DNA of 64,000 bases, from NCBI RefSeq assembly GCF_044324785.1, contig NZ_CP172127.1; one strand, given 5' to 3'. The stretch comes from Escherichia coli (GTDB taxonomy: Bacteria > Pseudomonadota > Gammaproteobacteria > Enterobacterales > Enterobacteriaceae). This document shows positions 20,884-23,800 of the stretch, one piece after another (position 1 is the first letter of the stretch; the number at the start of each line of letters is the position of its first letter). Position numbers: made by a program.

Positions 20884-23800
20884 TTATCGTTATGATCTAC
20901 AAAAGCCACCAGCATAACAAATCCGTGGTCGGTGGCAAAAAAAGCAGATTTCGCTTATTAAAACTGCACATTGATTGAAGTTTGAATAAACGCGCGATTT
21001 TTTAAAAAAGTTTGTTGACCTCAGGTCATGATTTCCCTAAATTAGCGCCCGTTCCAGCAAGACAGGAACGACAATTTGGTGAGGTGTCCGAGTGGCTGAA
21101 GGAGCACGCCTGGAAAGTGTGTATACGGCAACGTATCGGGGGTTCGAATCCCCCCCTCACCGCCATCTTTAAAGAAGAGCTCGTACGAAAGTACGGGCTT
21201 TTTTTTCGTATATTGCACACACTGGGGGGATGAGAAGCCCCGACCGGGGGTCGACAACTGGCGACAGCCAGTTGGACAGACCGTGAACGCAGTGAGCGGG
21301 CTGCCCGCAGGGCGAGCGAAGCGAGTCAATCCCCCCTCTCACCGCCATATTTAAAGAAGAGCTCGTACGAAGGTACGGGCTTTTTTTCGTATATTTCACA
21401 CACCGGGGGATGAGAAGCCCCGACCGGGGGTCGACAACTGGCGACAGCCAGTTGGACAGACCGTGAACGCAGTGAGCGGGCTGCCCGCAGGGCGAGCGAA
21501 GCGAGTCAATCCCCCCTCTCACCGCCATATTTAAAGAAGAGCTCGTACGAAGGTACGGGCTTTTTTTCGTATATTTCACACACCGGGGGATGAGAAGCCC
21601 CGACCGGGGGTCGACAACTGGCGACAGCCAGTTGGACAGACCGTGAACGCAGTGAGCGGGCTGCCCGCAGGGCGAGCGAAGCGAGTCAATCCCCCCCTCA
21701 CCGCCATCTTTAAAGAAGAGCTCGTACGAAAGTACGGGCTTTTTTTTCGTATATTGCACACACTGGGTCTCCCCCCCCGCCCAAGTCTGTTAGGGCGAGG
21801 GGTAATCGTGCACATCAACTGTCTGGTTGCTCAGTCAACAATCAAAATGCGCAAGAGAGTACAGAACATATATGCGTTATCTGGTCACTTCCTATAACTT
21901 CCTCACTTATTAAAATGCCCCCAACGGAAATACATGTCACATGCCATCATAAAATCGTTATGCCAGAGGAATCGACAATGGAAAAAATAGTAAATTAAGC
22001 ATGGTACATAGCAGAGTAAAAAATAGACTTCAAACCAAATCCGCCATTCCACAAGCGTTGCCAATACCGACACCAGCGTAATCCACATCACTTCAATAAC
22101 CAGCAATATGAATAACCGAAGCCAAAGCGGCTTGGCAAAAAAGGTCGACAACGCATTTTCACTGGAGAAAAACAGATCAATTTCCTGCAAAAAAAGCCTG
22201 CCCAGAAAAGCGTACCGCTTGGAGAAGCGCAGAAAAAACAGATTAATCGCCAACACTACGCCACAAAGAATGAGCAATGCAATTATCGATTTAAACGTTA
22301 ACCACTGCCCCTCTGTCACAAAAGAATCACTGTTACGCAACGGGCTGATAGTAAGCAGGTTAACAACCGTTGAGATGCACACCGAAAGCAGCACATAGCG
22401 AGTCAGACTTTTATATTTTACCTTTTTCGCCACTGAAATAGCGACCTGCTTGACATAACTGGTGCGGATCATCCGAAACAGCAGAAAGATAACCAACGGC
22501 CCAAGTAACGAAATCAGGAACAGCGCATATAACGAGGGTAGAAGCTGGTATAGCCCCCAACTCATTGCACTCAACATGATTAGCGACAGAAATCCTGCCA
22601 CCAGAGGTTGCGTAAGAAATAATTCTATTTTGTAGTTCTGCTTTTTCTTAAACCACGAAAAATCGATATTCTTCGTGACGCATTTATAAGCCCAGTACGC
22701 CTTGAGATCAAAAATAAAATTATACAGCACCAGGGCCAGAATCCCACTAACGACACCAATATCCTCAGATGGAAAAGTAAACCCTGCATTTTTCCAATAA
22801 AAGCCTATCAGAATAAGTCCAATAGCATAAATGTATATCAGATTTCGTTTATCCTGAAAGCGAATAAAAGTTAAATAATCAGGAATCATTTGAATACCTT
22901 CGCATCACTAAATGCTTTACGACAATGCATAACTCGTTGCTGATCCACGCCAGCAAAATCATTTAACATATTCCCCAAATAGGGCTTATTACTTATTTCA
23001 AGGAAAGCTACCGGGGTTGGCATATTCAGAAATGTATCGAGAGATTCAGTCCATTTCACCGTATGAGTTAAGTGTAATGAGAGATTTTCTTTGATAATTG
23101 ACGGAGCGACCTCGCTTTTTGCTGTTACGTTCATCAGAACCTGATGCTCTGGTGAAGCGATATCCAGTCCGGCAAGATAATCGCGCATTGCCTGAACGCC
23201 GTCTTCCATCAAACGCGTGTGCCAGGCACCGCTCACACCGAGTTTAACCGGTTCGTATCCAGCGGCCATCAGCAGCGTGGCAAATTCATTCAACGCCGCC
23301 TGCGTTCCCCCAATAACCTGCTGGCGCGGCGTGTTATCACAGCTAATATCCAGCGCAATGCCTGATTCCGTAATCATCGTCTGCAGTTGTTCGCGGTTGA
23401 TGCCTTTAACCGCCAGCATTGCGCCTTTATTTCTCTGGCTTTCGTCATGCATCAGGCTGGCTCTGAAGTGAATCATGCCAAATAGCGTCTCAAGAGAAAG
23501 AGCTCCGGCGGCGTAGAGCGCACTGTATTCACCAACGCTGTGTCCGCAGGAGCCCACAACCGTTAAATTCTCAAGACGCTCACGGCAGAGGGTATAGAGC
23601 GTTACATTAATTGCGGTCACCGCCAGTTGTTGTACCGTCGTTTGAATAAGGCGATTCATCGGCCCTTTCTGACACAGGCGACGCAGGTTCAGCCCGGAAA
23701 TATCGCTGGCACAATCCCAGATATGTTTTGTACTGGCATTGAGATCCCAAAGATCGCTGCCCATACCAATAACCGGATTACCCTGACCGGCAAAAAGCAG

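Follow-up and report, generated by a model that had tools for sequence, protein, structure and literature searches.

The serine tRNA gene serX of Escherichia coli is followed by a head-to-tail series of ~180-bp repeats, each of which carries a piece of the tRNA gene itself. What these repeats are, how they arose and whether they yield RNA are the questions that the locus raises. The window considered here is a stretch of 64,000 nucleotides from contig NZ_CP172127.1 (assembly GCF_044324785.1). A first-pass annotation had described serX in it as followed by about 3.4 tandem 180-bp repeats that re-copy the 3' end of the tRNA and its terminator. ARAGORN and Tandem Repeats Finder agree with this description (Table 1): the array spans 21147-21767 with a period of 180, 3.4 copies, 97% matches and a score of 1145, and 21768 is the first base of unique sequence after it. 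The last 19 nt of serX (21147-21165, AATCCCCCCCTCACCGCCA) are the opening bases of the repeat. The re-copied part is an 80-nt block present four times (starts 21147, 21329, 21509 and 21688), which starts with the final 19 nt of the tRNA, continues with the terminator hairpin and T-run, and closes with CGTATATTGCACACAC(T/C)GGG. The outer copies had been described as exact and the inner ones as variant. Consistently, copies 1 and 4 are identical (21688-21767 is 100% identical to 21147-21226), and the two inner copies, identical to each other, differ from the outer ones at 6 positions, by 4 substitutions and 2 one-base indels, one of which is a T inserted in the tRNA-like CCCCCCC run. A repeat search finds three 180-nt units, 21225-21404 being identical to 21405-21584, and their 99-nt cores are all identical. 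The proposed order of parts within the unit stands, namely core, copy of the last 19-20 nt of the tRNA and serX terminator, but the segment given as ~125 bp is a core of 99 nt, or ~118 nt with the tRNA-end copy. The array follows the formula (X Y)n X, in which X is the last 19 nt of the tRNA with the terminator and a short spacer, and Y is the 99-nt core.

Table 1. Features of the serX locus (positions in the 64,000-nt window)
Feature	Position	Strand	Description and source
serX promoter-like site	21015..21043	+	TTGACC, 17-nt spacer, TAAATT; promoter-like-site scan
serX, tRNA-Ser(GGA)	21078-21165	+	ARAGORN; sole tRNA called in the window
Intrinsic terminator 1	21172..21206	+	9-pair stem AGCTCGTAC / GTACGGGCT including one G-T pair; GAAA loop; T8
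RtT-like unit 1	21216..21347	+	G-run and ATGAGAA 5' module; core 21229-21327; 20-nt variant tRNA 3'-end copy with one inserted T, 21328-21347, AATCCCCCCTCTCACCGCCA; RF00391 34.6 bits, E 2e-4
Intrinsic terminator 2	21354..21387	+	Loop GAAG, T7
RtT-like unit 2	21396..21527	+	Core 21409-21507; variant tRNA 3'-end copy with one inserted T, 21508-21527; RF00391 29.7 bits
Intrinsic terminator 3	21534..21567	+	Terminator scan
RtT-like unit 3	21576..21706	+	Core 21589-21687; exact 19-nt tRNA 3'-end copy, 21688-21706; RF00391 32.9 bits
Intrinsic terminator 4	21713..21747	+	Identical to terminator 1
Last partial repeat	21748..21767	+	CGTATATTGCACACACTGGG; Tandem Repeats Finder, strain comparison
ycdU	21903..22889	-	Convergent with serX; last gene of the minus-strand cluster; context, outside the repeat

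The array is in all likelihood the serX-linked form of RtT, an already known tRNA-linked repeat, and not a new element. The first RtT elements to be described were the 178-bp repeats in the tyrosine tRNA operon tyrT. The Rfam model of the family (RF00391) gives three full-length matches in the window, one per unit, over model positions 1-130 (E 2e-4, 5e-4 and 3e-3), with scores about 10 bits below the gathering score of 45. The orthologous serX units of K-12 score 46.3 bits and bear the RefSeq label 'RtT sRNA'. In the core, they differ from the window units in a single base, reading GGGGTTCGAC where the window reads GGGGGTCGAC. The fourth serX unit of K-12 has the window's variant and is the one without annotation. 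The shortfall of the window units reflects their allele, scored on a model that was built from sequences of the tyrT type, and because of the one-base variant the window allele is missed by automatic annotation. The placement is also that of RtT: the ~180-bp units stand head to tail immediately after a same-strand tRNA gene, and each closes with a copy of the 19 nt at that tRNA's 3' end. The tyrT array (E. coli rttR, b4425) consists likewise of ~180-bp tandem units on the same strand directly after a tRNA gene, each ending with the last 19 nt of the local tRNA (AATCCTTCCCCCACCACCA at tyrT). The two types share the order GGATGAGAA, CGAC, T-arm-like GGTTCGA, CCCGNAGGGCGA hairpin and tRNA end, and in both the 5' G-run forms an outer stem with the tRNA-like strand. 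In contrast, the middle of the unit differs (a window unit and a K-12 tyrT unit agree in 55% of aligned columns), and serX units score 30-46 bits on RF00391 whereas tyrT units score 133-137 bits. The serX type has an intrinsic terminator in every unit, which the tyrT type mostly lacks, and an RNA product is annotated for tyrT (rttR) whereas the serX units are known here from their sequence. A literature search found no paper that names both RtT and serX, and the first-pass annotation had not recognised the family.

Copy number varies. The core is found in 3361 of the 5426 complete E. coli genomes, with 8003 copies in total and 1-11 per genome. The comparison of copy number across strains that had been suggested gave sampled E. 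coli serX arrays with 0, 1, 2, 3, 4, 5 or >6 units, some with block-duplication patterns. Strain EH41 has no unit, and its tRNA terminator is joined directly to the junction at 21768 of the window. The locus thus has the hallmark of a minisatellite (VNTR), in that 0 to >6 units separate serX from an unchanged downstream junction. The tyrT sister array, whose copy number also varies among strains, is the MLVA typing locus ms09 with alleles 0-7 (PMC8215070), and we mapped the ms09 primers to it. Unequal crossing-over, one of the two sources proposed for the array in the first-pass annotation, is supported by the range of copy number, the block duplications and the VNTR nature of the tyrT array. 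Unequal homologous recombination or replication slippage between X copies or between Y copies would add or remove whole units. As the functional tRNA gene contains the first X, whole units could be gained or lost without damage to serX, which would make the locus a minisatellite. Because part of a functional tRNA gene lies within the repeat, recombination can also swap the tRNA 3' end with variant copies. As a whole, the locus is probably best explained as an RtT minisatellite array that changes by unequal recombination or slippage and may give rise to read-through RNAs, although this explanation offers no specific account of the pattern of identical outer and different inner blocks. Such an array is a fast-changing marker that is usable for strain typing. 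Collapse or expansion during assembly could also change the number of units, and the exact allele of the window occurs in 0 of the 5,426 complete E. coli genomes (best match 97.3% over the full length). However, arrays of the same length and architecture are common in closed E. coli genomes and the inner and outer variants are internally consistent, so that an assembly artefact is extremely improbable.

The other source proposed for the array was iterated site-specific recombination at a tRNA att core. According to this reading, repeated integration and excision at the 3' end of serX stacked copies of the att core, and the units are remnants of cis-mobilisable elements. The 3' ends of tRNA genes are classic att sites. 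As at the att sites of integrative islands and cis-mobilisable elements, a duplicated tRNA 3' end lies beside the tRNA and borders a strain-variable segment. In ES8, ETEC1749 and E. albertii the break falls within the T-arm-like part of the last unit, immediately after GACCGG, and the 5' module A-ATGAGAA-B, in which A and B are two of four segments (A to D) discussed below, resembles a core site with inverted repeats set 7 nt apart. However, no mobile-element genes accompany the array: neither integrase nor excisionase lies beside it in the window, K-12, MEI003, N3, ES8 or ETEC1749, and no integrase is annotated on either side in the matching annotated genomes. In ES8 there is no second att copy: after the truncated last unit come only a DUF2726 gene and phoH. 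The repeated block runs on for 61 nt past the tRNA, each interval holds the same structured 99-nt core and not differing element remnants, and covariation in an internal hairpin indicates a constraint on the core itself. Furthermore, the same array stands at serX in K-12 and many genera, the serX and tyrT arrays are conserved in dozens of genera, and the array is also present in genomes without any island. An att origin is therefore very improbable, and the annotation of the window is corrected to an RtT array from an island att structure. The idea that the array marks the edge of an island holds in so far as the downstream segment varies among strains and some breaks lie inside the last unit, but K-12 likewise has ycdU, the gene that comes first after the array. 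An ordinary REP/BIME-type repeat, named at the outset as an alternative identity, is GC-rich, hairpin-forming, intergenic and repeated like the array. Unlike REP/BIME, the array has a unit of 180 bp instead of ~35 bp and is not dispersed: every inspected array, whether at serX or in another species, has its copies immediately after a tRNA gene. A covariance model of our own (R1) scores units 1, 2 and 3 at 108.7, 104.8 and 105.4 bits and finds no further copy in the 64-kb window, a weak match at 8053-8177 on the minus strand (E 0.076) being treated as noise.

The array is the meeting point of serX on the plus strand and a ~20-kb minus-strand cluster that ends in ycdU. A strong intrinsic terminator precedes each serX-type unit, and the hairpins of terminators 1 and 4 are also terminator-like on the minus strand (sites 21195-21182 and 21736-21723). 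On that strand, 6 terminator-like sites were found against 1.3 expected, and they include all four hairpins. The four hairpins would act as a terminator stack between the convergent serX and ycdU-cluster transcription units. Intrinsic terminators are present in 31 of 35 distinct Ser-linked spacers but in only 8 of 37 Tyr-linked ones, and those of the Ser type are kept by compensatory sequence change, for example in Pantoea (L085). It is conceivable that a bidirectional terminator stack insulating serX and the ycdU cluster from each other's transcription is the selected feature and that the cores are passengers. However, one terminator would be enough, and the zero-unit array of EH41 retains it; tyrT-type arrays do mostly without terminators, and the core is under a structural constraint of its own. 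This makes the passenger reading improbable. The scan of 20850-21950 found the serX site as the only promoter-like site on the plus strand and none inside the units. Because a terminator stands before every unit and no promoter-like site lies within, the RNA output of the serX units may be very low. No expression data for these units were found in the searchable literature.

Transcripts that pass the serX terminator would carry RtT-like units. Small RNAs with tRNA-like 3' ends, co-transcribed with the tRNA, had been suggested for the locus, and the annotation of rttR lends support to this in principle, by analogy: K-12 rttR starts 8 nt after tyrV, and its 3' end coincides with the tRNA-like CCA in the first tyrT unit. 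In the serX transcript, the 5' G-run of the unit would pair with the tRNA-like T-stem and acceptor strand, forming an acceptor/T-arm-like helix followed by NCCA. With such a helix and NCCA end, tRNA-processing enzymes could release RtT-like RNAs, presumably of ~130-180 nt as annotated for tyrT rttR, and cutting would occur at the tRNA-like ends (...CTCACCGCCA) if the analogy with tyrT rtT RNA holds. RtT-family RNAs beside Asn and Lys tRNA genes have been detected by Northern blots in Actinobacillus (PMC4986893). According to papers that cite their work (PMC3318445, PMC7542023, PMC4986893), Bosl and Kersten proposed in 1991 that rtT RNA has a modulating effect on the stringent response. Unit 1 folds with -59.7 kcal/mol (z -2.8), and in both its MFE and centroid folds the 5' purine run pairs with the tRNA-like T-stem/acceptor strand to form an outer helix. 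When 22 diverse units are folded to a consensus, this helix is again present, and two of its pairs show GC/AU/UA/CG exchanges. Two pairing schemes tie, the Rfam-type fold (A:D and B:C) with 236 Watson-Crick pairs and two T-arm-like hairpins (A:B and C:D) with 237. In Ser-type units alone, hairpin 1 is 98% paired with compensatory double changes in 5 of 8 pairs, and its covariation score exceeds those of all 500 shuffles and all slid controls. Such compensatory changes in one internal hairpin suggest, at the level of sequence comparison, a structured RNA. Helices 4, 5 and 7 of the window MFE fold, which lie in its 3' domain, are poorly conserved across genera (64-76% paired) and were not relied on. 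A hammerhead-like reading of GAUGAG...CGAA was rejected, as the motifs enclose no stem II and GAAA is lacking, and an Rfam E-value scan of the window found no ribozyme family.

Protein coding would be another use of the repeat. An uninterrupted 196-aa minus-strand ORF (21169-21759) crosses the array, a Tpr-like peptide could start from the ATG of ATGAGAA, the conserved codon at which the annotated tyrT tpr gene begins, and PGAP sometimes calls a 'hypothetical protein' over the repeats. However, the 196-aa ORF exists only because 180 = 3 x 60: in K-12, whose serX array has a 181-bp period, it splits into 137-aa ORFs that overlap and change frame. No protein family matches the 196-aa ORF. ORFs that start at the ATG range from 5 to 66 codons with frame changes, and the commonest Tyr-linked one (32 of 55 units) stops after 5 codons. 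The ORFs across the array are repeat artefacts, and the likelihood of a coding function is close to nil.

RtT-like units are found well beyond serX. In the scanned genomes, 101 of 123 arrays lie directly downstream of a same-strand tRNA gene, the other 22 being mostly at the ends of fetched loci. Related units follow tRNA-Ser and tRNA-Tyr genes across Enterobacterales, and homologous ones are found after Pro, Lys, Asp, Ser(CGA) and Arg tRNAs, the hosts of all these units together comprising Enterobacterales, Oceanospirillales, Alteromonadales, Kangiella, Stenotrophomonas, Sedimenticola and a Fibrobacter MAG. They always bear the 3' end and T-stem sequence of the local tRNA. In each case segments A to D agree with the T stem of the local tRNA, and A and B show Watson-Crick complementarity to D and C even if the tRNA itself contains G.U pairs. 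Insert-free 'minimal' units also occur (L099, L112), and a Pro-linked unit scores 59.7 bits on the Tyr-built Rfam model, above the E. coli Ser units. A metagenome scan for the non-enteric pattern made a few tRNA-linked additions (L137, L140, L155, L156); most other matches there have no tRNA upstream and look like chance. These observations raise the possibility, doubtful at present, that RtT-like units form one widespread tRNA-flank family in Gammaproteobacteria and at least one Fibrobacter MAG, with the four segments re-matched to the T stem of the preceding tRNA. A-ATGAGAA-B may then resemble the reverse complement of the T arm, and C...D may be a T arm split by a 60-70-nt insert. If so, the serX array would be one amplified instance, and the family would point either to a templated or mobile origin at tRNA genes or to an RNA that mimics tRNA and is under selection to fold with its own tRNA's T arm and 3' end or to compete with them. 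The same evidence is also compatible with ordinary concerted evolution together with selection for helices.

A related reading, which we regard as quite unlikely, is that a selfish or self-templating element colonises tRNA 3' flanks and rebuilds its T-stem-matching segments from the local tRNA, the serX array being a local amplification. The many tRNA identities across bacteria, the tracking of each T stem by A to D, the score of the Pro-linked unit and the minimal units would all fit such an element. However, no mobilising gene was identified, unequal crossing-over with the tRNA gene would by itself produce the tracking by C and D, and that by A and B is explainable by ordinary selection for helices. 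Each non-enteric tRNA class is represented by one or a few examples, and RtT elements beside several kinds of tRNA had already been reported (PMC4986893). An RtT array at serX adds to an old question, namely what role RtT RNA has and why the T arm and 3' end of the neighbouring tRNA are copied. The model of another named RNA, the Xanthomonas/Stenotrophomonas sRNA sX4 (RF02223), spans a tRNA-Ser, its terminator and the start of an RtT-like unit (GGGGGGTGAGA). It matches the window weakly at 21067-21235 (34.4 bits, below the gathering score of 70), mainly through the tRNA itself, and scores 108 bits at a Stenotrophomonas locus (L116) where a unit follows tRNA-Ser(CGA).

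Starting within the 3' end of serX, the tRNA-Ser(GGA) gene, Tandem Repeats Finder detects a 180-bp repeat with 3.4 copies, 97% matches and a score of 1145. The array can be written as (X Y)3 X. The ~80-bp block X consists of the final 19 nt of the tRNA, a hairpin (AGCTCGTAC-GAAA-GTACGGGCT) with a T7-8 run, and CGTATATTGCACACAC(T/C)GGG, and Y is a GC-rich core of 99 nt, identical in all three copies in the window. X blocks 1 and 4 agree at 80 of 80 positions. The two inner blocks are identical to each other and depart from this outer sequence at six positions, one of them an extra T within the tRNA-like C-run. 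Tandem-repeat detection and block comparison bear out the first-pass annotation, which had described tandem 180-bp units re-copying the tRNA 3' end and its terminator, with outer copies matching the tRNA flank exactly and inner copies variant. This pattern may stem from an exchange between two unlike alleles by recombination.

Features of the serX array and its surroundings in window coordinates
Feature	Coordinates	Strand	Remark
tRNA-Ser(GGA) gene	21078-21165	+	sole tRNA gene of the window
Span of the sX4 model (RF02223)	21067-21235		
180-bp tandem repeat	21147-21767		
196-aa ORF	21169-21759	-	spans the whole array
Cluster behind ycdU through two-partner pair	22886-42232	-	
ACP S-malonyltransferase	22886-23827	-	
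LolA-like protein	25226-26014	-	
Two ketosynthases	29642-33428	-	
ACP	34698-34979	-	
FabZ-like dehydratase	35001-35549	-	
acpS	36328-36696	-	
ShlB/FHA two-partner secretion pair	36712-42232	-	
dgcT remnant and 5'-truncated pgaC	~54991-56443		

Both the family identity and the architecture of the array are read directly; the element family is one already known and annotated, and the locus is known as well. Gene order is that of E. coli ghrA-serX-[array]-ycdU, with ~98.7% identity to strain MEI003. In an Rfam E-value scan of the window, RtT RNA (RF00391) gives three full-length matches, one per unit; they reach 34.6, 32.9 and 29.7 bits, where the gathering score is 45. RefSeq annotates RtT sRNA features on the serX array of many genomes, K-12 included, and the curated MG1655 record carries no feature at this array. 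Under Rfam's own thresholds, K-12 units score 46.3 bits at serX and 133-137 bits at tyrT. Three of the four full units of the K-12 serX array are annotated; the fourth has GGGGGTCGAC in place of GGGGTTCGAC, a variant shared by all three window units. A single base, and no difference in the kind of element, therefore keeps the window allele from being annotated.

In K-12, the tyrT locus has the layout tyrT-[unit]-tyrV-[unit x3]; each of its units closes with the 19 nt that end tRNA-Tyr. The tyrT and serX units have in common GGATGAGAA, a CGAC linker, a T-arm-like (G/A)(G/A)GGTTCGA, a CCCG(A/C)AGGGCGA hairpin, and CGAGTNAAT followed by the tRNA end. Their middles differ, with 55% identity over aligned columns. 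At tyrT, the annotated rttR RNA begins 8 nt past tyrV and ends exactly at the CCA of the unit, and the start codon of the annotated tpr ORF is the ATG within GGATGAGAA.

The number of units varies among strains. Read directly, the serX array has no unit in EH41, one in D4, two in strain 163 and MEI003, three in NDM3 and the window, four in K-12, five in ST540 (a two-unit block repeated) and six plus a truncated unit in ES8. Of 5426 complete E. coli genomes, 3361 carry the 99-nt core, with 1 to 11 copies each and 8003 overall. Arrays as long as that of the window are common; the exact window allele is found in none of the 5426, the best match being 97.3%. In the zero-unit allele of EH41, the tRNA terminator joins directly the unique junction that closes the array elsewhere. 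This junction and the copy-number range look as unequal recombination or slippage would leave them, supporting unequal crossing-over, one of two origins proposed earlier. Consistently, the array at tyrT serves, under the name ms09, as a 179-bp VNTR for typing Shigella and E. coli, with alleles 0-7 (PMC8215070), and the ms09 primers map to both flanks of the K-12 tyrT array. The other proposed origin, iterated site-specific recombination at a tRNA att core, finds no support at this locus: mobile-element genes are absent at the array, neither flank of which has an annotated integrase or excisionase in K-12, NDM3, MEI003, N3, ES8 or ETEC1749, the repeat reaches 61 nt past the tRNA, and an identical core fills every interval. 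Nor does the array behave as a dispersed REP/BIME-type repeat, since, across the 64 kb of the window, our own covariance model of 22 diverse units picks out just the three of the array.

Related units follow other tRNA genes. A pattern scan with GGATGAGAANCNNCGANNNNGGNNCGA in one genome per species yields at least 120 loci, and nearly all matches listed lie 58-68 nt past a same-strand tRNA or ~180-nt multiples further; about 8 matches are tRNA-less, compared with about 9 chance matches expected from the database size and 18 specified bases. An HMM search groups these listed matches into at least 123 arrays of 1-5 units; 101 of the 123 lie directly behind a tRNA, most others being at the ends of fetched loci. 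In these matches, tRNA-Ser(GGA) or tRNA-Tyr precedes most arrays, across numerous genera of Enterobacterales. Further units stand behind tRNA-Tyr (Marinobacterium, Sedimenticola), tRNA-Pro (Neptuniibacter), tRNA-Lys (Neptunicella), tRNA-Asp (Kangiella), tRNA-Ser(CGA) (Stenotrophomonas) and tRNA-Arg (a Fibrobacter MAG). The Pro-linked, Marinobacterium and Sedimenticola units pass the RF00391 threshold, and in Actinobacillus expressed RtT-family RNAs adjoin Asn and Lys tRNA genes (PMC4986893). The Stenotrophomonas locus is Rfam sX4. Because the sX4 model covers tRNA-Ser, the terminator and the opening bases of an RtT-like unit, both in the window and at 5879-6086 of the Stenotrophomonas locus (L116), sX4 and RtT seem to cover overlapping stretches of the same type of locus.

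In every tRNA class, four short unit segments mirror the local T stem: A directly 5' and B directly 3' of ATGAGAA, C 5' of TTCGA, and D within the copied tRNA end at the 3' side. A keeps Watson-Crick complementarity to D even at a G.U pair of the tRNA (Pro), and B complements C without being copied from the tRNA strand (Fibrobacter Arg, metagenomic Pro). The consensus fold is A:D plus B:C; the alternative pairing, A:B plus C:D, has equal complementarity. In Ser-type units, hairpin 1, which does not depend on the tRNA-matched segments, is 98% paired and shows compensatory double changes in five of eight pairs, and the whole-structure covariation score of these units exceeds 500 of 500 shuffles and every slid control. 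Such covariation speaks for constraint on a single strand that folds, with RNA as the simplest candidate. Only the tracking of the T stem across many tRNA identities may go beyond earlier descriptions. Concerted evolution combined with selection for helices fits the same evidence equally well. A tRNA-Tyr acceptor variant (...CCCCCGCCACCA) is repeated in the downstream units of four loci, in Enterobacter sp. JUb54, Pluralibacter, Enterobacteriaceae RIT691 and Buttiauxella (L050, L087, L098 and L109), so the tRNA 3' end and the units evolve in concert. Some units lack the 60-70-nt insert (L099, 6639-6750, E. coli SCPM-O-B-8794, with a period of 106 bp; L112, ~9200, Marinobacterium alkalitolerans), and their 5' module (G-run, ATGAGAA, CGAC/CGAA) directly abuts a complete T arm with the tRNA 3' end. 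This suggests that minimal units arose by recombination of the T-arm-like segment of a unit with the true tRNA T arm.

Transcripts from the single promoter-like site of serX would read through into the units, where the A:D helix and NCCA would mimic the acceptor/T-arm end of a tRNA; trimming would next release discrete RNAs, as annotated for rttR. By analogy with annotated rttR, which ends at CCA, the earlier suggestion of RNAs with tRNA-like 3' ends is supported in principle. As cited in later papers (PMC3318445, PMC7542023, PMC4986893), a 1991 proposal links RtT RNAs to the stringent response. A strong intrinsic terminator precedes the unit in 31 of 35 distinct Ser spacers versus 8 of 37 Tyr spacers, and no promoter-like site is found within the units of the window array; a terminator ahead of each promoter-less serX-type unit is the weak point of the RNA proposal. 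The array hairpins also score as minus-strand terminators between convergent serX and the ycdU cluster, and minus-strand termination may be their additional or alternative role.

A protein product of the array is not favoured. The 196-aa minus-strand ORF translates into a 60-aa block three times and stays open because the period of 180 is divisible by three; the K-12 period of 181 bp yields frame-shifted 137-aa ORFs, and the 196-aa ORF matches no protein family. Reading frames opened by the conserved ATG have 5 to 66 codons, the commonest Tyr-linked one (32 of 55 units) ending after 5. Gene callers are easily misled by the 196-aa ORF, and a hypothetical protein is entered there in some RefSeq records.

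Past the array lie ycdU, a minus-strand fatty-acid/polyketide-type cluster that also holds ABC transporter genes, the two-partner secretion pair and a fimbrial operon, followed by a dgcT remnant fused to truncated pgaC, phoH and efeUOB. By its gene set, the cluster may resemble those of the aryl-polyene type. Coverage of window 19500-24500, with the cluster start in it, reaches 80% or more in only 87 of the 5426 complete E. coli genomes. After the array, K-12 has a 357-nt cluster remnant beside IS3, B2-type strains have a degenerate partial unit and then dgcT directly, and ES8, ETEC1749 and E. albertii have a DUF2726 gene and phoH. Several strain breakpoints fall within or immediately after the last unit. 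In ES8 (L130/L134), ETEC1749 (L136) and E. albertii (L075), the last unit is cut at GACCGG and joined to the DUF2726 gene, and the entire ycdU-to-pga region is missing. Since the identical junction is also present in E. albertii, the DUF2726 arrangement is old. The array had been taken as the edge of an island, which holds loosely: it adjoins a strain-variable segment but not a classical integrase-borne island. Further along, the dgcT remnant meets 5'-truncated pgaC as in strain N3, which indicates that a deletion of ~6 kb took the 5' part of dgcT, pgaA and pgaB; the dgcT/pga genes are intact in most other genomes.
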